The notes under the pieces were generated by a model. That model was not told the DNA's origin and ran no database searches. It was given only the letters and a program-made list of their open reading frames with translations. Shown here piece after piece: positions 1 to 10,635 of a stretch of DNA of 12,844 bases (the stretch's first letter is position 1; each line of letters begins with the position of its first letter). The translations under genes were made by a program, and so were the position numbers. The stretch is from contig JARRRI010000063.1 of the NCBI GenBank assembly GCA_037380845.1, forward strand, positions 1 to 12,844. The letters are read 5' to 3'. This DNA is from Candidatus Sulfobium sp. (GTDB lineage: Bacteria; Nitrospirota; Thermodesulfovibrionia; Thermodesulfovibrionales; UBA6898).

Positions 1-501
1 GTTGCCTTTTTTATCATTGATGAAAAATGTTGAAGAGAACATGAGAACAGCGCCCCAAAAGGCACCGGAAGAATGGAACCAGACGAAAAGGTTGTGACAG
101 TAATCAGAAAAAGCATGGAAAAAGTCAAGGATGCCCATGGAAAAGAGGGCGTAAACAAGAAAAAGAATATTCTTTTTCCCGGAAACCAGATATTCCCAGG
201 ACAATATCAGGCCGATAATGATTGCGATCAAACCGCAAAAAACTTCAATGAGGGTGTGATTTGAAGAATTTACCCAGAACATATTCCCTAACCCTAAAAA
301 CTGCTCTATAATCGGCCTGCTCGCGGATACTAATGCCACGGATATGAAGACAAAAAAAGTAAAGAAAAGGAGTTTGTTTCTGGTCAAGAAAGTACTATCT
401 TTAGTCTCATCGACATTAAAAGTAACGTAATTGAGAAAAGAGCACTTCTCAAAGGGGGGGATGAGACCCCCGATCTTTTTCAAAAAATCAGGAGGTTTCA
501 C
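1..501 (-). CDS. N-terminal MASE3-like multi-pass membrane sensor domain, probably of a histidine kinase or diguanylate cyclase; partial, runs off the left edge
   Basis: Hand translation of the minus frame is open from 501 to 1: ...KLLFFTFFVFISVALVSA...NHTLIEVFCGLIAIIIGLILSWEY...KKNILFLVYALFSMGILDFFHAFS...NLFVWFHSSGAFWGAVLMFSSTFF. It has several hydrophobic helices plus HxxxE and DxxH motifs like MASE3. The start is uncertain: GTG at 501 (overlaps the tatA stop) or TTG at 387. Confidence 0.7.
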   Translation of the reverse strand, partial: MKPPDFLKKIGGLIPPFEKCSFLNYVTFNVDETKDSTFLTRNKLLFFTFFVFISVALVSASRPIIEQFLGLGNMFWVNSSNHTLIEVFCGLIAIIIGLILSWEYLVSGKKNILFLVYALFSMGILDFFHAFSDYCHNLFVWFHSSGAFWGAVLMFSSTFFINDKKGN

Positions 502-698
502 GTTCCCGATGCCTGGTCTTTTTCCCCTGCTGCAACCCCGGGAGTTGATTCAATTTCTTCAGGACCAGACGTTGATTTTTTGAAATTTCTAATTGCCTCT
601 CCGAAGCTCCTTCCTAATGCAGGCAATCTTGTGGCACCAAACAAGATCACGACGATTACCAGGAGAATTAGCAGTTCTTGAAGGCCTAATCCAAACAT
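498..698 (-). CDS. tatA: Twin-arginine translocase subunit TatA/TatE, 66 aa
   Basis: MFGLGLQELLILLVIVVILFGATRLPALGRSFGEAIRNFKKS shows the TM helix, FG hinge and amphipathic helix ending in FK. The ATG at 698 follows GGGGGAGGAG, so it is preferred over the ORF-track start at 749. Confidence 0.95.
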   Translation of the reverse strand: MFGLGLQELLILLVIVVILFGATRLPALGRSFGEAIRNFKKSTSGPEEIESTPGVAAGEKDQASGT

Positions 699-806
699 CT
701 CCTCCCCCCTTATTGAAAAGTCCGCATTAGCAAACACCTGGAAGCTCATTCCATGGGATTTGCCTCTTTTTTTAAAGCCCTTTTCAACTCTTAAGCACCT
801 AGATAT

Positions 807-815
807 ATTTTACCA
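807..815 (-). promoter_or_regulatory. Candidate extended -10 promoter for tatA
   Basis: The minus strand reads TGG-TAAAAT (TGnTAnnnT) about 110 nt upstream of the tatA ATG. No well-spaced -35 is present. Confidence 0.4.
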
Positions 816-903
816 CAAAGTGCAAAAATCAAGGACCGCCCGTACAGTCAGCCGCTTTTCGGGCTTTACGTTACGCCGCCGTGGTCATGATGGCCGTTTT
901 GTC

Positions 904-2697
904 CTACTCTTTCATGGCGTTCGTATAATTCTTGATCCTTGTCAGCCTGTCTTTCATTTCGTCAAGCGCCTGCAGGGACGCCCCGATTTCCCGGCGTCCC
1001 CTTTCGATGTCTGCTTTGCTTCTGTTTCTCTGCGCCATCCCTTTTTCCACTGCCGTTCCTATCCCATCGATGGTCGCCTCGATTCTCTGGAGCATCTCCC
1101 ACCTGAAATCCAGCTTGCTCTTCTGGATGCGCTCATCGAAGTCGTTCCCGGACCTTCCAAGTTGCATATCGACGGCATTAGTCAGTTGCTCACACATCTT
1201 CTTATGGATAATCCTGTCGCCTATGAATTTAGGCAGAGCGAGGGTCAGGGAGGAAGCGACTATCTCTATGCCGACAGGCTGCTCTTTGAATTTATAGTAA
1301 AACCGTGATCTTGCAGACCAGATGGCCTCGGTCTTGACGGCCTCGAAAGGGATTTCGAAAAGGTCAGATGAGAACTTGAGAAGCTCATCGACAGCACTGT
1401 CTATCTTGATCACGAACCTCTTACAGATCACCTGGAATGCCCTGGCAAGCTTGTCGTCTTCCATTGCCCGCCATATATTGAAAGCCTGTCTTACACGGGA
1501 TATGATCGATTCTTCGACCGTCTTTTTGAGTTCCCTGGAGGACAGTGTTTTAGCCCGGGAGAACAGTTCTTCAAGTTGGCTCTGCTCGTGAGAAAGCAGT
1601 TCTCTCCTGAACTTCGCCATGTCCTCATGAAGTACGCTCCTGATCAGCCTCTTTGTTTCGCCGTCCAGGAGGATATCGAAATCCCGCTTTTCGAGTAATA
1701 CGTCCCTTTTTTTCGCCTCAAAAGCCGCGATCTTCTGCTGAAGCTCTGCAAGAGGTGTAGTAAGCGATTTAAGCTCCAGTTCGAGTTCAAGTCCTGCCTG
1801 AGAGATCAGCCTCATAAGGTTGTCGGCCACCGAGGTGATAAGGACCTTCCCTTTTTCTTCCATGAGGAAAGCGTTCAGCTTCCGGGAAAACTCCGGAAGC
1901 ATGCTTTTTCGGATCACGTCCGCGGCGTTGTTGAGTTCGCCGTCCAGGGCCTGCTTAGCCGAAAGCGGAAATATCCGCACATCGGAGCCGGTAGCGTCCC
2001 GGAGCACATCCTTTTGAAAATCGATGGATTCCACCAGGTCCCTTTCGTCCACCTGGTCGGCCTTGTTGAGCAGGAAAAAAATCCTGTTTGAATATTCTCT
2101 TACGTCCCTGAGAAAGTCGAGCTCCGCCTTGCTTACGGGCTGGTCGACAGACAGAAGAAAGAGAACCGCGTCAGACTTCGGCAGGTATCGATACGCCACA
2201 TCCGTGTTGTGCTGGTAGATGGAGCCGACCCCGGGGGTGTCGATCAGCCGCACGCCGTCCTTCAGGTAGTGCGAGGGGTAAGTTACTACAACCTCGTTTA
2301 CGTCCTTGGCGTTCCTGGGGTTTCCTTTCTCAGTTACGTATTCGCGCAGGCTTTCCGGATTGATCTCGGCGACTCTGCCGTCGTTGAAACTGACCTTGAT
2401 CCTCAGCGCATCGCCGTAAGTAATAATGGTCACGATGGATGTAAGCGGCACAACGGCAACAGGAAGAATGTCCGCGCCGAGCAGGGCATTAATAAGGCTC
2501 GTTTTCCCTCTCTTGAATTGGCCCGCAACGACTAGATTAAAGGCGTTGGTTTCAATCTTCTCTCTCAGTTCTTCGCACGGACAGCCCCTGATGCATTCCA
2601 TGGCGAGCATGTCATCGATGCACCGTAACAGGTCTCCCTTCAGACTTGAATAAGCCGACATTGCGGAAGATGCGACCGCAAACGTTTCTTCCGGCAT
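904..2697 (-). CDS. Bacterial dynamin-like GTPase (Dynamin_N family), 597 aa
   Basis: G1 GQFKRGKT, G2 PLT, G3 DTPG and G4 NKAD are followed by a long helical/coiled-coil region with a short hydrophobic tip (VGIEIVASSLTLALPKFIG). A strong SD (AGGAGGT) precedes the ATG at 2697. Confidence 0.93.
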   Translation of the reverse strand: MPEETFAVASSAMSAYSSLKGDLLRCIDDMLAMECIRGCPCEELREKIETNAFNLVVAGQFKRGKTSLINALLGADILPVAVVPLTSIVTIITYGDALRIKVSFNDGRVAEINPESLREYVTEKGNPRNAKDVNEVVVTYPSHYLKDGVRLIDTPGVGSIYQHNTDVAYRYLPKSDAVLFLLSVDQPVSKAELDFLRDVREYSNRIFFLLNKADQVDERDLVESIDFQKDVLRDATGSDVRIFPLSAKQALDGELNNAADVIRKSMLPEFSRKLNAFLMEEKGKVLITSVADNLMRLISQAGLELELELKSLTTPLAELQQKIAAFEAKKRDVLLEKRDFDILLDGETKRLIRSVLHEDMAKFRRELLSHEQSQLEELFSRAKTLSSRELKKTVEESIISRVRQAFNIWRAMEDDKLARAFQVICKRFVIKIDSAVDELLKFSSDLFEIPFEAVKTEAIWSARSRFYYKFKEQPVGIEIVASSLTLALPKFIGDRIIHKKMCEQLTNAVDMQLGRSGNDFDERIQKSKLDFRWEMLQRIEATIDGIGTAVEKGMAQRNRSKADIERGRREIGASLQALDEMKDRLTRIKNYTNAMKE

Positions 2698-2720
2698 TAC
2701 CGCACCTCCTCATACGGATA

Positions 2721-2758
2721 ATAAAAAACTCCTGCCAAAATGTCCTTCAGCAGGAGTC
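2721..2758 (-). terminator. Intrinsic terminator serving as the expression platform of the fluoride riboswitch
   Basis: On the minus strand ACTCCTGCTGAAG (2757-2745) pairs with TTTTGGCAGGAGT (2740-2728): 13 bp including three G-U, loop GACA, then TTTTTATT. The 5' arm is the aptamer's own GACTCCT segment. Confidence 0.88.
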
Positions 2759-2798
2759 ATCAGTCCGTGCGGACGTTTGTGGCGAACTCCATCGCCAT
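2750..2798 (-). ncRNA. Fluoride riboswitch (crcB motif) aptamer
   Basis: The minus strand reads GGCGATGGAGTTCGCC-ACAAAC-GTCCGCACGGAC-TGATGACTCCTGC. This gives P1 GGCGA/TCGCC, loop GGAGT pairing with downstream ACTCC (pseudoknot), an A-rich linker, a P2 hairpin and the conserved TRATG, matching the established crcB consensus. Confidence 0.95.
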
Positions 2799-2810
2799 AA
2801 CCTTAAAATT

Positions 2811-2839
2811 AATGTATCAGGAATTGAGAATAATGTCAA
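2811..2839 (-). promoter_or_regulatory. Sigma70-type promoter driving riboswitch and dynamin gene
   Basis: TTGACA (2839-2834), 17-nt spacer, TACATT (2816-2811) with extended TG. The predicted start near 2804 lies just 5' of the aptamer. Confidence 0.75.
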
Positions 2840-2954
2840 AATCATTCCGTTTCCCGTCAAGAAATTAAAGGCCGTCTCCCGGCGGAATTCTCCCTGTATT
2901 CAGTATTATCAACATTAATGAAAACGTTCAATGGCGGGTGTGATCCATGCAGAA

Positions 2955-2983
2955 TTGCTCCTGGGAACTTTGGGACATATAAT
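2955..2983 (+). promoter_or_regulatory. Sigma70-type promoter for the P-type ATPase
   Basis: TTGCTC (2955-2960), 17-nt spacer, TATAAT (2978-2983). Predicted start is near 2990. Confidence 0.7.
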
Positions 2984-2986
2984 TGA

Positions 2987-3077
2987 AATAAGAGGTAGCC
3001 AACTTTGATATCAATGGCCGGATGATTTTACAGCCGGTGACTACCTGTATTCAGGAGGAGCGATAATGAATCAGGTA
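2987..3077 (+). promoter_or_regulatory. Structured 5' leader with alternative pairings (candidate cis-regulatory RNA)
   Basis: CTACCT (3041-3046) can pair with upstream AGGTAG (2993-2998). Alternatively TACCTG-T-ATTCA (3042-3053) can pair with downstream TGAATCAGGTA (3067-3077), giving 11 WC pairs that enclose the SD and cover the uORF start. Confidence 0.45.
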
Positions 3078-3098
3078 CATGGGGGGAATCTCATATGA
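3066..3098 (+). CDS. Candidate leader peptide/uORF MNQVHGGNLI (10 aa)
   Basis: AGGAGG at 3053-3058 lies 7 nt before ATG 3066. The TGA at 3096-3098 overlaps the ATPase ATG (ATGA). Confidence 0.4.
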   Translation: MNQVHGGNLI

Positions 3099-5617
3099 GC
3101 AGCCACGATGAACAACAGAAACATCCGGCCGGAGCCGAAACTGCGCAGGAGGCGCAACAGATATCACTTGAGGAATTTGAGAAGCGTCTGAATTCTTCCG
3201 TGGATGGCCTGAGTCAGACGGAGGCCGAGAAACGTCTTGCAAAGTACGGGCCCAATTCTCTGGAAGAAAAGGAGGTCAACCCGCTTCTGAAATTTCTCTC
3301 CTATTTCTGGGGGCCCATTCCCTGGATGATCGAAGTTGCAGCGGCCCTTTCTGCCGTAATAAGACACTGGGTAGATTTCATTATTATCGCCGTTTTGCTT
3401 GTCTTCAATGCGGCAGTGGGTTTCTGGCAAGAGCATCAGGCGGCTAATGCGGTGGACGCCCTGAAAAAACAGCTGGCCCTCAAGGCGCGCGTAAAGCGTG
3501 ACGGAAAATGGAAGGAGGTCGCCGCTGCCGCTGTGGTTCCGGGAGATGTCATAAGACTGCGCTTGGGAGACATTGTTCCTGCCGACGTCAAGCTCGCTGA
3601 AGGCGATTATCTAAGCGTTGACCAGTCGGCGCTCACGGGCGAGTCGCTGCCCGTGGACAAGAAGAAGGAGGACGTTGCCTATTCCGGCTCCACGGTCAAG
3701 CAGGGTGAAATGGAGGCATTGGTAACAGCCACCGGAAGAGATACATACTTCGGCAAGACGGCGAAGCTGGTATCCTCGGCAAAGTCCGTTTCCCACTTTC
3801 AGCGGGCGGTGCTCACCATCGGGGATTACCTGATCTTCCTCAGCCTGGGACTCGCCGCCTTCCTCATCTTGTCCATGCTTTTGAGAGGCGCTTCCTTCAT
3901 TTCCCTGTTTCAATTCGTATTGATTCTGATCGTGGCCGCAATTCCCGTTGCCATGCCCGCCGTACTTTCGGTCACGATGGCTATCGGCTCGGTCGTACTC
4001 TCGAAAATGAAGGCTATTGTTACCAGGCTGGAGTCGATAGAGGAGATGGCCGGCATGGATATGCTCTGCTCGGACAAGACCGGTACACTGACGCAGAACA
4101 AACTGACCCTTGGAGAGCTGGCCCTCTTTGAGGCGGAAGACGCACAGGAACTGGTTCTTGCCGGTGCGCTGGCATCCAAGGCAGAAGACAATGACGCTAT
4201 CGATGCAGCTGTGCTGGCAGGGCTCAAGAATCGGGAGGTGCTGGATTCCTATAAGCAGGTAAAGTTTATGCCGTTTGATCCGGTGCACAAACGCACGGAA
4301 GCCGAGATAAAGGGCTCCGGGGGAAAATCCTTTAAAGTTACGAAAGGCGCGCCTCAGGTTATTCTCAAACTTTGCGGCAACGAGAGTAATTTGTCCGGGA
4401 AGGTAAATGACAAGGTGGACGAACTTGCACGCCAGGGTTACCGCACTCTGGGAGTGGCCAGGAAGACCGACGGCGATGGATGGCATTTCCTTGGACTTCT
4501 GCCCCTGTTCGACCCGCCGCGGGAGGATTCCAGGGAGACTATCAGAAGAGCCGGGGAGCATGGGATTAAGGTAAAGATGGTCACAGGCGATAACCTGGCC
4601 ATTGCAAAACAGATCGCTTCAACCCTCGGTATGGGCACTAAAATCCAGTCGGCTGAAGCCATGTTTCACGAAACTTCTGACGATGATTCGGTCTCTCCCC
4701 GGGAGGCATCCCGAGTTGAAGCTGCGGACGGGTTTGCCCAGGTTTTCCCGGAACACAAATTCGAGATAGTGAAAGCCCTTCAGTCCAGGGGCCACATTGT
4801 CGGCATGACAGGGGACGGGGTGAACGATGCCCCGGCGCTCAAACAGGCCAACACCGGCATTGCGGTCAGCGGAGCCACCGACGCTGCGAGGGCTGCCTCT
4901 GCGCTGGTACTGACGGCGCCCGGTCTTTCGGTTATTGTCCAGGCCGTCGTGGAGGCCCGCAAAATATTCGAGCGGATGAACAGTTACGCCATCTACCGGA
5001 TTACGGAAACGATCCGTATAATGTTTTTCGTTGTCCTGGCGATGGTAGTCTTTGATTTCTACCCGATTACCACCATCATGATCATATTGCTGGCACTGCT
5101 CAATGACCTGCCCATCATGACCATCGCATACGACAATACCTGGCTTGACCCGAAACCTGTACGCTGGGCGATGGGAAGGGTCCTTTCGGTCTCGACGGTC
5201 CTGGGTCTGATCGGGGTCGTGGAGACTTTCGGTATCCTCATGATAGCGAAGATGTTGCTTAAGCTGGACGATGCCCAGATCCAGTCGTTCATCTACCTGA
5301 AGCTGGCTGTTGCCGGCCATATGACGCTGTTTGTCGCCCGGACGAAGCGGCCCTTTTTCAGTAAACCTCGTCCTGCTCCCATACTGCTCATTGCGATTCT
5401 CTGCACCCAGGCGGTTGCGGCCATGATAGTGGGGTTCGGCATTCTGGTCACACGCCTTCCATGGATATACGTAGGTTTCATCTGGGGATATTGTCTGGTG
5501 TGGCTGTTTATTGAAGACCGGGCAAAGTTGCATGTTTACCACCACCTTGAATTGAGCGGGAAACATCACCGGGATTTCCTCCAGCGGATGTCGCAGCAGC
5601 TACATCCCGGAGCATAG
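3095..5617 (+). CDS. Plasma-membrane-type proton-efflux P-type ATPase (P3A), 840 aa
   Basis: General P-type motifs are TGES, DKTGT (phosphorylation), KGAP, DPPR, MVTGD and GDGVNDAPAL. P3A-typical segments are FWGPIPWMIE, IPVAMP, YAIYRI..TIRI and LLNDLPIMTIAYD (proton-binding Asp). Confidence 0.93.
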   Translation: MSSHDEQQKHPAGAETAQEAQQISLEEFEKRLNSSVDGLSQTEAEKRLAKYGPNSLEEKEVNPLLKFLSYFWGPIPWMIEVAAALSAVIRHWVDFIIIAVLLVFNAAVGFWQEHQAANAVDALKKQLALKARVKRDGKWKEVAAAAVVPGDVIRLRLGDIVPADVKLAEGDYLSVDQSALTGESLPVDKKKEDVAYSGSTVKQGEMEALVTATGRDTYFGKTAKLVSSAKSVSHFQRAVLTIGDYLIFLSLGLAAFLILSMLLRGASFISLFQFVLILIVAAIPVAMPAVLSVTMAIGSVVLSKMKAIVTRLESIEEMAGMDMLCSDKTGTLTQNKLTLGELALFEAEDAQELVLAGALASKAEDNDAIDAAVLAGLKNREVLDSYKQVKFMPFDPVHKRTEAEIKGSGGKSFKVTKGAPQVILKLCGNESNLSGKVNDKVDELARQGYRTLGVARKTDGDGWHFLGLLPLFDPPREDSRETIRRAGEHGIKVKMVTGDNLAIAKQIASTLGMGTKIQSAEAMFHETSDDDSVSPREASRVEAADGFAQVFPEHKFEIVKALQSRGHIVGMTGDGVNDAPALKQANTGIAVSGATDAARAASALVLTAPGLSVIVQAVVEARKIFERMNSYAIYRITETIRIMFFVVLAMVVFDFYPITTIMIILLALLNDLPIMTIAYDNTWLDPKPVRWAMGRVLSVSTVLGLIGVVETFGILMIAKMLLKLDDAQIQSFIYLKLAVAGHMTLFVARTKRPFFSKPRPAPILLIAILCTQAVAAMIVGFGILVTRLPWIYVGFIWGYCLVWLFIEDRAKLHVYHHLELSGKHHRDFLQRMSQQLHPGA

Positions 5618-7285: not shown

Positions 7286-7314
7286 ATACTATATCCTTAA
7301 CGCGCCGTCTGCAA
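7286..7314 (-). promoter_or_regulatory. Candidate promoter for the lipoprotein gene, overlapping the end of the HEAT gene
   Basis: TTGCAG (7314-7309), 17-nt spacer, TAGTAT (7291-7286). Confidence 0.45.
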
Positions 7315-7992
7315 ATGGTACGGCCGAGAATTATCCTTCTTCCGTATCATCGACAATGCCCAAAGGGCCTCCTCCCTCAGAAGGGGATCGCGGTCATGGT
7401 CGGCTACGTCCCTTAAAGAGGGGACCGCTCCGGCATCCTTTATCAGAGCCAGGGAGCGGATGGCGCTTGACTTTATCGTGAAGCTCCCGTCTTTCAGTTG
7501 CCGGATAAGATAGGGCACCGCACTTGCGTCACCCACTCTGCCCAACGAGACAATGGACGCCTCCCGCACCAGGAGCTCCGGGTCGTCCAGGCTGCCAATA
7601 AGGGCCCCGACCACCCGGGGGCCTTCAAAATCCCCGAGGGCCACGGCGAGGCTGCTCTTGACCGCGGGGCATTCCCGATGAAAGAAAGGATCGGAAAAAA
7701 GCTGTACGAGGACATCTTTAACACGGGGCGTGTGTATCCGGCTTAATACCTGAATGCCGCGTATCTGGATTCTCCAGTTTAAACCGCGGTTCACGATCAA
7801 ATTGATGAGAGCCTCCGTCGATTGCCTGCCGGCCAATTTTTCGAGTGCGGCCTTGTTGAGGATACGGACCTGCCAGTCATCCCCCCGGAGCTTGTCCAGT
7901 ATGGAGTCGGTTTCAGAAGCGCAGACGGTTATGCCCGCCCCGACAGCTGCGGCGATGATGACAGCGATGACTATTTCTTTAAAAATTCTCAT
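7297..7992 (-). CDS. Exported or membrane-anchored HEAT-repeat (PBS lyase-like) protein
   Basis: The N-terminus MRIFKEIVIAVIIAAAVGAGITVCA is signal-like. Repeats include LDDPELLVREASIVSLGRVGDASAVPYLI and DRDPLLREEALWALSMI. The start is 7992 or 8016. Confidence 0.8.
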   Translation of the reverse strand: MRIFKEIVIAVIIAAAVGAGITVCASETDSILDKLRGDDWQVRILNKAALEKLAGRQSTEALINLIVNRGLNWRIQIRGIQVLSRIHTPRVKDVLVQLFSDPFFHRECPAVKSSLAVALGDFEGPRVVGALIGSLDDPELLVREASIVSLGRVGDASAVPYLIRQLKDGSFTIKSSAIRSLALIKDAGAVPSLRDVADHDRDPLLREEALWALSMIRKKDNSRPYHLQTAR

Positions 7993-8278
7993 GATTCGCC
8001 ATGCAGCTCCCTGCACGCCGGATGGTGTCCACGATTAGATTCTATCACCCCTGTGGCCCCTCGGCAACGACAGGTGTCAGGAAATACTGATAGGTAAGCA
8101 TTTGATAACTTTATATCCATCTATATATAGAGGCGATGGCCTGGCAACCTGACGGGCCTCACCTTGAGGTTTATGTCAGGCTTCAATCTTATAGTGCGAA
8201 GAAGTGGTGTTTAAATACGGCGGACCAAAATTCTCTTCGGGAAGCCATGGAATAAACCATGTCAGATGCAAAATGATT

Positions 8279-8306
8279 TTGCGGACAGCGTCTCTCATGT
8301 TATAGT
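8279..8306 (+). promoter_or_regulatory. Candidate promoter for the TMTC-like gene, possibly leaderless
   Basis: TTGCGG (8279-8284), 16-nt spacer, TATAGT (8301-8306) with extended TG. +1 would fall at about 8313, the GTG start. Confidence 0.5.
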
Positions 8307-8312
8307 GTTTGC

Positions 8313-9620
8313 GTGGGCAAGGCTTCAAGGAGAAAAAACAGGGTTGCCCGGGGAGTCCGGACCGATCGAGGGGGTTCAACAAGTGCAAAAGCCCTTGATG
8401 CCAGTACGATTTTCCAAAGACGACTTGTTCATATTGTTTTGGTAGCCGCTTTTGCGCTTCTTGCTTACTCCAATACTTTTCACATCCCGCTCCTGTTTGA
8501 TGGAGGACCTCAGATTGTTGATAATCCTATTATTAAAGATCTGAAGAATTTCACTTCAGACAGAAAGGGTTACAATTATAATCCCCGGCGCTTCATCGGC
8601 TATCTTTCCTTTGCCCTGAACTATCACTTCGGGGGTCCGGGTGTTGTGGGCTACCACATCGTGAACCTTCTGATCCACATAGGCAATGCGCTTCTCATCT
8701 ACTTTCTTGTAGTTCTGACCTTCAGGACATCATTGATGCGGCAATCAGCCGATTCCTCCCCTCCCGCTGCGCTTTTGATCGCCCTCTTTTCAGCGCTCCT
8801 TTTCGTTTCGCATCCTTTACAGACACAGGCGGTGACGTACGTCGTTCAGCGGTTCGCTTCCCTTACGACGTTCTTTTATCTGCTCTCCCTGGTTATGTAT
8901 ATAAGAGGAAGGCTCTCAAGCCGGCAGGCCGGCAAGCTTGCAAGCTTTTTTTGCTCTTTGCTCTCCGCTGTCCTTGCCATGAAGACGAAGGAAATAGCTT
9001 TTACGCTTCCAATAATGATAGCCTTCTATGAGTTCACTTTTTTCCGGTCTTCGCGCAGGAAGAAGCTTCTCTTCCTTCTGCCCGTATTGCTTACCCTGTT
9101 TATAATCCCTTTGAGCGTCATGCACAGCGGCAAGCCCCTGGGAGAGATATTGTCAGATGTGAGCCGACAGACGAGGATCCAGACTCAGATGCCGCGATGG
9201 GAGTATCTCCTGACCGAGATGCGGGTAATCGTCACCTATATACGGCTCATCTTTCTTCCGGTAAACCAGAATCTGGATTATGACTATCCGCTATATCATT
9301 CCCTGTTTACGCCGTCCGTCATTTTCTCAGTCCTGTTCCTTATGGCGATTTTAGGTTTGGCGGTATATCTGATCCATAAAAGCCGACAAGCTGACAGGCA
9401 GCAAGCGCCAAACGGCAAGCAGCTGTCAGCGATCAGCGATCAGCAGGAAGAAAAAACAGAACGTGACAATCCGACAATCCGGCAAGCTGACACCTCGGCG
9501 GCCGATCAGCCTTCGACCAAGCTCGAAGGTCGAAGGGCCGGTTCTTTGCCTCCAACCTCAAACCTCCAGCCAGATGCGCCTTACTATCGCCTCAACGACA
9601 GTATTAATGATTGCGGCTAA
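8313..9620 (+). CDS. TMTC-like membrane domain, N-terminal fragment
   Basis: YSNTF.IP..FD....I.DNP.I, YHIVNLLIH, LLFVSHPLQTQAVTYVVQR, AMKTKE, YIRLIFLPVNQNLDYDYP and many TM helices. Confidence 0.7.
   Translation: MGKASRRKNRVARGVRTDRGGSTSAKALDASTIFQRRLVHIVLVAAFALLAYSNTFHIPLLFDGGPQIVDNPIIKDLKNFTSDRKGYNYNPRRFIGYLSFALNYHFGGPGVVGYHIVNLLIHIGNALLIYFLVVLTFRTSLMRQSADSSPPAALLIALFSALLFVSHPLQTQAVTYVVQRFASLTTFFYLLSLVMYIRGRLSSRQAGKLASFFCSLLSAVLAMKTKEIAFTLPIMIAFYEFTFFRSSRRKKLLFLLPVLLTLFIIPLSVMHSGKPLGEILSDVSRQTRIQTQMPRWEYLLTEMRVIVTYIRLIFLPVNQNLDYDYPLYHSLFTPSVIFSVLFLMAILGLAVYLIHKSRQADRQQAPNGKQLSAISDQQEEKTERDNPTIRQADTSAADQPSTKLEGRRAGSLPPTSNLQPDAPYYRLNDSINDCG
9381..9570 (+). repeat. Cluster of short 7-8-mer tandem repeats and a hairpin inside the coding frame
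   Basis: CAGCTGT-CAGCGAT-CAGCGAT-CAGCAGG (9420-9447); GACAATCC x2 (9465-9480); CCTCCAA-CCTCAAA-CCTCCAG (9549-9569); perfect inverted repeat CCTTCGACC/GGTCGAAGG (9510-9536); CAAGCTGACA twice. Confidence 0.7.
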
Positions 9621-10635
9621 GAGACTGAGGGTCGAAAGGGTTGTTATCCCGACGCTTGTCCTTATAACACTCGTCCTTTCAGGCCTCACCTATGCGAGGA
9701 ATACTGCATGGAAGGACGGCATAAGCTTGTGGCAGGACGCAGTAATGAAGAGTCCGAATAAGCTCCGTCCTCACTATGAGCTTGGCCTGGCATACTTATC
9801 TAAAGGCCAATTGGACAAGGCAACGTCAGAATTCCAGACGGCAGTGCGGCTGAAGCCCGATTACGCGGAGGCTCACATTAATCTGGGCGTAGCATACAAA
9901 GCTCAGGGGCAATGGGACAAGGCAATTGCAGAATACCAGGCGGCATCACGCCTGAAGCCGGATTATGCGGAGGCCTATAATAACCTCGGGGTAGCGTATG
10001 CATCTCAAGGCCGGCTGGACAGGGCAATTGCGGAATACCAACGAGCGTTACGGCTGAAGCCCGGTTACGCAGAGGCTCATTATAACCTTGGCATTATATA
10101 TGAATCTCAAGGCCGGGTTGACGGGGCAATTGCAGAATACCAGGCGGCATTGCGCCTGAAGCCCGATTATACAGAGGTTTACCTTAACCTTGGCACTGTA
10201 TACGAAACTCAGGGCCAGTGGAATAGGGCGATCGCGGAATACCAGGCGGCATTACGCCTGAAGCCGGATTATGCGGAGGCTCACTATAACCTCGGGGTAG
10301 CGTATGCATCTCAAGGCCGACTGGATGAGGCAACGGTAGAATTTCAGGCAGCAGTAAGGCTGAAACCCGATTACGCAGAGGCTCACATCAATCTTGGAGT
10401 TGCATACGCATCTCAAGGCCAATGGAACAGGGCAATTACAGAATACCGGACAGCATTAAGGCTGAAGCCCGATTACCTAAAGGCCCATTATAACCTTGGC
10501 GTTGCATACGAATCGCTGGGCGAATGGGAAAAGGCAATTGCAGAATACCAAATGACATTAAGACTGAAGCCTGATTTGCACGAAGCACGCCGGCATCTCG
10601 ATGATATCGTCTCAAGACGCGCCAGGGTTCATTAA
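9586..10635 (+). CDS. C-terminal fragment: last TM helix plus eight TPR repeats (in-frame ATG at 9607)
   Basis: LVLSGLTYARNTAWKDGISLWQDAVMKSP is followed by 34-aa units of the form AEAHYNLGVAYASQGRLDxAIAEYQxALRLKPDY. Confidence 0.75.
   Translation: MASTTVLMIAAKRLRVERVVIPTLVLITLVLSGLTYARNTAWKDGISLWQDAVMKSPNKLRPHYELGLAYLSKGQLDKATSEFQTAVRLKPDYAEAHINLGVAYKAQGQWDKAIAEYQAASRLKPDYAEAYNNLGVAYASQGRLDRAIAEYQRALRLKPGYAEAHYNLGIIYESQGRVDGAIAEYQAALRLKPDYTEVYLNLGTVYETQGQWNRAIAEYQAALRLKPDYAEAHYNLGVAYASQGRLDEATVEFQAAVRLKPDYAEAHINLGVAYASQGQWNRAITEYRTALRLKPDYLKAHYNLGVAYESLGEWEKAIAEYQMTLRLKPDLHEARRHLDDIVSRRARVH
9763..10578 (+). repeat. Eight 102-bp TPR-coding tandem units
   Basis: CTGAARCC (LKP) recurs at 9850, 9952, 10054, 10156, 10258, 10360, 10462 and 10564, an exact 102-nt period. 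Confidence 0.92.

Follow-up and report, generated by a model that had tools for sequence, protein, structure and literature searches.

A fluoride riboswitch upstream of a dynamin-like GTPase gene

In the first 12,844 nt of a contig of the Nitrospirota bacterium Candidatus Sulfobium sp. (JARRRI010000063.1, assembly GCA_037380845.1), called the window below, we identified on the minus strand what appears from its sequence to be a single-gene unit, consisting of a promoter, a fluoride riboswitch, an intrinsic terminator, a ribosome-binding site and the gene of a dynamin-like GTPase. Sequence, predicted structure and conservation together make it very probable that the riboswitch acts as a fluoride ON switch of the dynamin gene. 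Thus, a standard fluoride switch appears to be wired to an unexpected class of effector, and this predicted wiring is conserved across a large protein family. A preliminary description of the same stretch had proposed, as its core claim, that a transcription-ON fluoride riboswitch directly controls a dynamin-like GTPase, and the three lines of evidence just named support it. The elements of the unit are:

2839-2811 (-): sigma-70-type promoter-like site, TTGACA-17-TACATT with TG before the -10 element (10 of 12 matches to the consensus; assigned by consensus only)
2805-2744 (-): fluoride riboswitch aptamer (crcB motif, RF01734; Rfam covariance model, 54.1 bits)
2758-2717 (-): intrinsic terminator, with a stem at 2758-2727 (14 pairs, loop of 4) and a U-rich tail at 2726-2717
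2711-2705 (-): Shine-Dalgarno sequence GAGGAGG, as read from the DNA, 7 nt before the ATG at 2697
904-2697 (-): gene of a dynamin-like GTPase of the BDLP/IniA class, 597 aa (Pfam Dynamin_N)

The aptamer aligns to positions 1-64 of the 64 positions of the Rfam model RF01734 with an E-value of 6.5e-13, and its score of 54 bits compares with a gathering score of 34. It is the sole Rfam match in the 12.8-kb window, and a covariance search of the whole genome returned it at the same place with the same score. The preliminary description had placed a crcB aptamer at 2796-2750 and had proposed a covariance-model search of the leader as a check; the search confirmed the aptamer and extended its alignment on both sides. 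The promoter that it had reported is likewise present as a consensus match, from which transcription would likely begin at the aptamer's 5' edge.

The terminator stem is followed by the tail TTTTATTATC, and its 5' arm (2758-2744) overlaps the last 15 bases of the aptamer. These include ACUCC, which we assign, from the solved aptamer, to the 3' strand of the fluoride-enclosing pseudoknot. Because of this overlap, which had also been noticed in the preliminary description, aptamer and terminator should be mutually exclusive; transcription-ON fluoride switches usually work by such exclusion, and the overlapping terminator is the predicted expression platform. The minimum free energy (MFE) fold of 2690-2815 contains both the first stem of the aptamer and the terminator hairpin (-45.5 kcal/mol, z-score -4.13), and none of 200 shuffled sequences equals it. 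No minus-strand open reading frame (ORF) of at least 60 aa lies between the aptamer and the ATG of the dynamin gene, in agreement with the earlier statement that no gene intervenes.

In the mechanism that we propose, the 3' strand of the aptamer (ACUCCUGC...) would pair, when fluoride is absent, with the downstream segment GCAGGAGU, the terminator would form and transcription would stop ahead of the dynamin gene. Upon a rise of cytoplasmic fluoride, the aptamer would close its pseudoknot around fluoride and Mg2+ and hold the 3' strand, the terminator would be blocked and the dynamin mRNA would be made. The crcB-type transcriptional fluoride riboswitch of Bacillus cereus offers a direct parallel, since it has the same full-length aptamer consensus, a terminator whose 5' arm lies over the 3' end of the aptamer, and an ON response of the kind predicted here; overlapping terminators are described for the crcB motif in Weinberg 2010. 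The difference lies in the controlled gene, which here encodes a dynamin-like GTPase and neither a transporter of the exporter or antiporter kind nor an enzyme that fluoride inhibits. The riboswitch is an ordinary member of RF01734, and the unusual part is its link to a dynamin.

Conservation of the riboswitch-dynamin pairing

Among close relatives, the protein was matched in 13 of 41 genomes, and nine of the 11 loci that hold the 5' end of the gene carry a riboswitch at Rfam level just upstream; an apparent exception, L007, has a same-strand riboswitch 1.74 kb upstream, beyond the fetched locus. We also searched a phylum sample of 151 genomes, described as unbiased, which contains 87 riboswitch matches in 57 genomes and 12 orthologous dynamin genes (58-100% identity) in 11 genomes. 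Each of the 12 orthologues lies downstream of a riboswitch on its own strand, nine of them within about 70 nt (one of these riboswitches scores 31 bits, below the cut-off) and three at about 1.7 kb, and 12 of the 87 riboswitches lead to a dynamin gene. Two genomes of the sample encode distant dynamins (24-27% identity) with no riboswitch upstream; both genomes hold no fluoride riboswitch at all.

Two wider sets of loci were scanned with a custom covariance model (R1) built from 12 aptamers. The genome set comprises 47 loci from public genome contigs (41-85% identity), of which one (L051) is a 3' fragment, leaving 46 with upstream DNA; a riboswitch was counted as direct if it scored at least 29 bits within 150 nt upstream. 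The metagenome set comprises 80 loci (32-72% identity) found with the family alignment, 77 of them with upstream DNA, and here direct means at least 25 bits within 300 nt. The position of the riboswitch relative to the dynamin gene was as follows:

Genome loci (n = 46): direct 30; weak or partial 2; same strand 0.9-2.9 kb upstream, separated by other genes, 11; none 3
Metagenome loci, at least 56% identity (n = 15): direct 13; weak 0; further upstream 1; none 1
Metagenome loci, 43-55% identity (n = 16): direct 2; weak 0; further upstream 2; none 12
Metagenome loci, 30-42% identity (n = 46): direct 31; weak 2; further upstream 11; none 2
All metagenome loci (n = 77): direct 46; weak 2; further upstream 14; none 15

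A same-strand riboswitch is thus found upstream, at any distance, in 41 of the 46 genome loci and, directly or further away, in 60 of the 77 metagenome loci; together with the 12 of 12 phylum orthologues, these counts answer in the affirmative the question, raised in the preliminary description, of whether homologues are linked to fluoride riboswitches. One clade of dynamins lacks the switch, and more distant members keep it. At 20 of 20 distant loci that were re-checked, Rfam's own model confirmed the riboswitch at the same coordinates and above the gathering score. The genome loci are labelled mostly as metagenome-assembled genomes (MAGs) of Nitrospirota/Thermodesulfovibrionales, with a few delta- and betaproteobacteria, Spirochaetota and Pseudomonadota. 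HMMER collected 2,239 clusters of the dynamin family at an E-value of 1e-30 or better; Atlas look-alike clusters are commonest in Acidobacteriota, Thermodesulfobacteriota, Bacteroidota and Bacillota, and linkage to the riboswitch was assessed per phylum within the window's own phylum.

The RNA structure is conserved along with its position. In an alignment of 101 aptamers from 70 of the sources, fitted to the model, 98.3% of the stem cells are paired and all eight pairs are changed on both sides; none of 500 shuffled alignments reaches this value, and slid controls are 28-51% paired. Among the directly linked genome leaders we folded 29 (L056 was omitted as identical to L055), and 28 of their MFE folds contain a hairpin that begins at (A)ACUCCU and is followed by a U-run; in the 29th (L036) an equivalent hairpin is readable by eye. 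The genome set contains two pairs of duplicates or near-duplicates: L055 and L056 come from two contigs of the same record set and gave identical matches, and L027, labelled as a Spirochaetota MAG, has the same folded leader sequence as L032, labelled as a Nitrospirota MAG, so one of the two bin labels may be wrong. In some leaders a second conserved element, CUCCUACCGACAGA...GGAGG, follows the terminator (L049 at 3583-3655, and the leaders of L052, L058, L059, L060 and L061). This element can, by its sequence, pair with the ribosome-binding site and may provide a second, translational layer of control; the leader in the window is without it.

The genome assembly of Candidatus Sulfobium sp. 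totals 3.18 Mb on 104 contigs and is, by its marker genes, 100% complete. Two fluoride riboswitches were found in it: one precedes the dynamin gene, and the other lies just upstream of crcB, which is on another contig (C4). The solitary position of the unit, away from crcB and among neighbours that are not conserved, could be taken to mean that the aptamer was left behind when a rearrangement took away an exporter gene, and that it now controls nothing meaningful. We regard such a chance or decayed juxtaposition as very improbable: aptamer, terminator and spacing are all intact, the stems covary across aptamers, and riboswitch and gene are directly adjacent at 30 of 46 genome loci, at 46 of 77 metagenome loci and in nine of 12 phylum orthologues, at protein identities (32-78%) that argue against a single, recently spread element. 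The conserved module is the riboswitch together with the dynamin gene.

Sequence and predicted structure of the dynamin-like GTPase

The product of ORF 904-2697 matches Pfam Dynamin_N with an E-value of 1.6e-29 (103.5 bits, cut-off 27). It carries the G1-G4 motifs intact, as GQFKRGKT, T86, DTPG (153-156) and NKAD (211-214), and residues G59, R63, G64, K65, T86, D153-G156, N211, K212 and D214 are invariant in an alignment of 42 family sequences. Sequence searches against solved structures gave BDLP of Nostoc punctiforme as the best match (2j68, E-value 1.9e-24), and also matched IniA (6j72, E-value 4.1e-20 over residues 46-411) and the Campylobacter dynamin pair (5owv). The AlphaFold2 model built from the 42-sequence alignment (mean pLDDT 86.3, pTM 0.77) consists of an N-terminal helix, a G domain at approximately residues 50-260 and very long helical bundles (282-446 and 490-596), with no transmembrane segment evident. 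Between the long trunk helices lies a low-confidence loop (447-480) with a conserved S-x-F-Y-Y-K motif, whose aromatic and basic residues make it a candidate lipid-contact loop in the model. Foldseek searches with this model ranked BDLP (1.9e-22) and IniA (8.8e-22) at the top, followed by the Campylobacter pair, SynDLP and mitofusins, with LeoA also among the matches. NCBIfam returned partial matches only, including a weak one to CrfC; the DynA equivalog of the two-headed Bacillus dynamin (NF052648) scored 83.8 bits against a cut-off of 1600 on a partial match, and the protein is not a DynA equivalog. Judging from its motifs and model, the 597-aa protein appears to be an active member of the BDLP/IniA class of dynamin-like GTPases, with putative membrane activity.

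BDLP (2j68/2j69/2w6d), a member of the mitofusin-like class, shares with our protein the order of a G domain followed by long helical bundles. It differs in length, as the window protein is about 100 residues shorter (597 aa versus a 695-residue chain), and in the tip, which here is the low-confidence loop with S-x-F-Y-Y-K; the TM-scores are just 0.4, as expected for hinged multi-domain proteins. The searched literature on bacterial dynamin-like proteins and fluoride contained no link between BDLP and fluoride. IniA, the isoniazid-inducible protein of Mycobacterium (6j72/6j73), is closer in size (606 residues in the 6j72 chain) and is the second-best fold match, albeit at approximately 18% identity in the structural alignment. 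IniA is made in response to a stress signal, not constitutively, and the same is predicted for the window dynamin from its riboswitch. The inducing signal differs, in that it would be read here by an RNA fluoride sensor instead of a protein regulator of cell-wall stress, and no iniB- or iniC-like partner was seen here.

Fluoride islands and gene neighbours in relatives

In relatives, the dynamin gene often lies in fluoride islands, which can carry two or three consecutive riboswitches (L023, L024, L037 and L044). The units of these islands are a riboswitch followed by a Na+/H+ exchanger and Usp; a riboswitch followed by crcB and DUF190 (a double DUF190 protein); and a riboswitch followed by the dynamin, an AAA_16-type P-loop protein, a zinc-ribbon-HEAT protein, a HIT or HAD-like protein and enolase. 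DUF6062 is also found in the islands. A tblastn count over the 47 genome loci gave, as neighbours no more than 4 kb away, crcB (22 loci, which answers the earlier question about fluoride-related genes near homologues), DUF190 (23), the Na+/H+ exchanger (23), Usp (24), enolase (10), HAD-like proteins (14), zinc-ribbon-HEAT (13) and AAA_16 (9); counts are lower in the 80 metagenome loci (crcB 8, enolase 16). Downstream partners were counted in the 92 of 127 loci with a whole or near-whole match, skipping those with less than 600 nt of downstream DNA. They vary between zinc-ribbon-HEAT (18 loci), HAD-like (15), enolase (14) and AAA_16 (13), and none is universal. A further, separate fluoride riboswitch of L058, scoring 39.1 bits with the custom model, precedes a HEAT_2 repeat protein at 7602-8404 (-). 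The clade without riboswitches is found among L082-L094, L097 and L124 (metagenome loci of 43-55% identity); in three of its seven examined loci (L086, L088 and L090) a divergent SLT_2 lytic transglycosylase adjoins the dynamin gene, and in L124 the dynamin lies between enolase and phosphofructokinase.

Since the dynamin family is mostly wired to riboswitches, often in islands with crcB, antiporter, Usp or enolase genes, we propose that the dynamin is a conserved effector of the fluoride regulon, with a predicted role in fluoride tolerance. It would thereby join the classical effectors that use the same RNA sensor, such as CrcB/Fluc, CLC-F, Na+/H+ antiporters, enolase, pyrophosphatase, HAD-type phosphatases and formate hydrogenlyase; in relatives its gene shares islands with crcB, DUF190, the Na+/H+ exchanger, Usp, enolase and HAD-like genes. 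In contrast to these effectors, it is predicted to be a mechanochemical membrane GTPase, for which no transport or metabolic activity is expected.

Predicted function of the dynamin

That fluoride induces the dynamin is a strong inference, and we consider a fluoride-switched dynamin unit with a conjectured role at the membrane or envelope to be the best explanation of the data as a whole, and a probable one. The specific role is more tentative. By analogy to the stress-induced IniA and DynA, the likeliest role, though still short of probable, is that the dynamin preserves or reseals the envelope or cytoplasmic membrane at times when fluoride upsets pH homeostasis and the synthesis of the envelope. 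The BDLP/IniA-like fold and the SLT_2 neighbours in the riboswitch-free clade hint, weakly, at such an envelope role.

A different role within the fluoride response, away from the cytoplasmic membrane, would be release of vesicles (as for LeoA), a function at the nucleoid or in division (as for CrfC), or service as an NTPase scaffold for partner proteins. The changing set of downstream partners fits this idea, as do the model without an evident transmembrane segment, the presence of LeoA among the fold matches and the weak match to CrfC. Nevertheless, the membrane-remodelling proteins BDLP and IniA match better than LeoA or CrfC in both sequence and fold, and in the window the unit stands without partners, the two commonest of which were not found in the genome; we therefore judge a non-membrane role to be rather unlikely.

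Induction of the dynamin could also compensate for its trapping by metal fluorides, an idea that the preliminary description had raised next to membrane repair. Together with Mg2+ or Al3+, fluoride traps GTPases in a GDP-metal-fluoride state, and additional dynamin could replace the poisoned molecules, as is thought for enolase and pyrophosphatase. Enolase is indeed encoded in the same islands in relatives, and the fold matches include mitofusin structures in a "transition-like state", which presumably contain metal fluorides. Overexpression of fluoride-inhibited enzymes is a known logic of the regulon according to a 2024 review. Such compensation is nonetheless unlikely: although the genome is 100% complete by marker genes, Dynamin_N is matched in full by no gene other than the riboswitch-gated one, and this gene, predicted to be off without fluoride, would leave no basal activity in need of a top-up; moreover, the tie to the riboswitch is far tighter than expected for a housekeeping enzyme. 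Three further Dynamin_N matches from the profile search of the genome cover only the first 34-42 profile positions, in ORFs of 294-467 aa.

A related and quite improbable idea is that the GTPase cycle of the dynamin itself reads fluoride, with GDP-metal-fluoride (Mg2+ or Al3+) locking dimers of G domains and thereby assembling the protein on the membrane or tethering it. If it were true, the fluoride-locked dynamin would be a second, protein-level fluoride sensor, which would seal or reshape the membrane where and when fluoride is high.

Several points weigh against a fluoride-induced dynamin that acts on the membrane. Fluoride-dependent readthrough and expression of the dynamin are what we infer from the leader (the 16 sequencing runs listed for positions 700-3100 are all DNA runs), and the membrane role is a conjecture built on the analogy to IniA and DynA and on slight hints from gene neighbourhoods. 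No riboswitch is found within the available DNA at three of the 46 genome loci and 15 of the 77 metagenome loci, and the latter include 12 of the 16 loci at 43-55% identity. The AAA_16-type P-loop and zinc-ribbon-HEAT partners of relatives were not found in this genome with the relatives' proteins as queries. Finally, the adjacency of the H+-ATPase and TatA genes that flank the unit in the window is not conserved: when these two, the MASE3 protein, the L,D-transpeptidase and the HEAT protein of the window were compared with the other loci, only P-type ATPases of 27-33% identity were found, at three loci, and therefore the local context says nothing about the function of the dynamin.

Relation to known fluoride-responsive genes

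Full-text searches for dynamin together with fluoride, riboswitch or crcB yielded no relevant paper, as judged by title and abstract, although the gene lists of Baker et al. 2012 may name the class. The papers that mention both crcB and dynamin concern eukaryotic cell biology (mitochondria, connexins, cancer trafficking), and searches that paired the fluoride riboswitch with GTPase found nothing relevant by title or abstract either. In their accessible parts, the surveys of riboswitch-associated genes list other classes and no dynamin: exporters, Na+/H+ antiporters, pyrophosphatase, HAD enzymes, enolase, formate hydrogenlyase and chorismate mutase in the 2024 review; eriC and crcB in Sherlock and Breaker 2020; mutS, K+ or Cl- transport and formate hydrogenlyase in Weinberg 2010; and CrcB and EriC in a 2022 survey.

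Bacterial dynamins are widespread, and the natural trigger and the job of most of them are not known. The pairing described here would tie a whole family of dynamin-like GTPases of about 590 residues to a defined chemical signal, fluoride, which makes their function testable. The known response, as outlined in the accessible text of the 2024 review, relies on export, on homeostasis of pH and ions, and on additional copies of the enzymes that fluoride inhibits. A GTPase that remodels membranes would be a third arm of this response, and would mean that fluoride harms the envelope and that cells have a specific answer to this harm. The unit in the window, with riboswitch and dynamin and without partner genes, is a convenient minimal example.

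Other features of the window

The genes on both sides of the unit are:

3095-5617 (+): P-type H+-ATPase, transcribed divergently from the riboswitch unit (TIGR01647)
within 498-903 (-): tatA gene, downstream of the dynamin gene and separated from it by a 154-nt gap

The ATPase matches the TIGR01647 equivalog (plasma-membrane proton-efflux type IIIA) with a score of 1036.9 bits (cut-off 615.5). A proton pump next to a gene predicted to be induced by fluoride is suggestive of acid or HF stress, but the pump has no riboswitch and its position next to the dynamin is not conserved. The gap between the dynamin and tatA genes holds just a weak terminator-like hairpin at 849-834. A promoter for tatA read by eye (TTGATT ... 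TAAAAT) has a spacer of 14 nt and is absent from the promoter scan, and we rejected it. No tatA gene was found next to the dynamin in the other loci at an E-value of 1e-8 or better, with a query that is short. None of the 12 main ORFs of the window matches the CRCB or CLC families in Pfam and NCBIfam, in accord with the preliminary description, which had seen no fluoride exporter here.

The remaining genes include those of a MASE3-like membrane protein, an L,D-transpeptidase and a 239-aa HEAT_2 protein (7297-8016 (-)), the last of which is without a riboswitch. Three ORFs have no match in Pfam or NCBIfam:

8313-9620 (+): ORF of 435 aa
6862-7149 (+): ORF of 95 aa
7221-7481 (+): ORF of 86 aa

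The 435-aa ORF overlaps the start of an ORF for a 390-aa TPR protein (9463-10635), so the start of one of the two has probably been miscalled.

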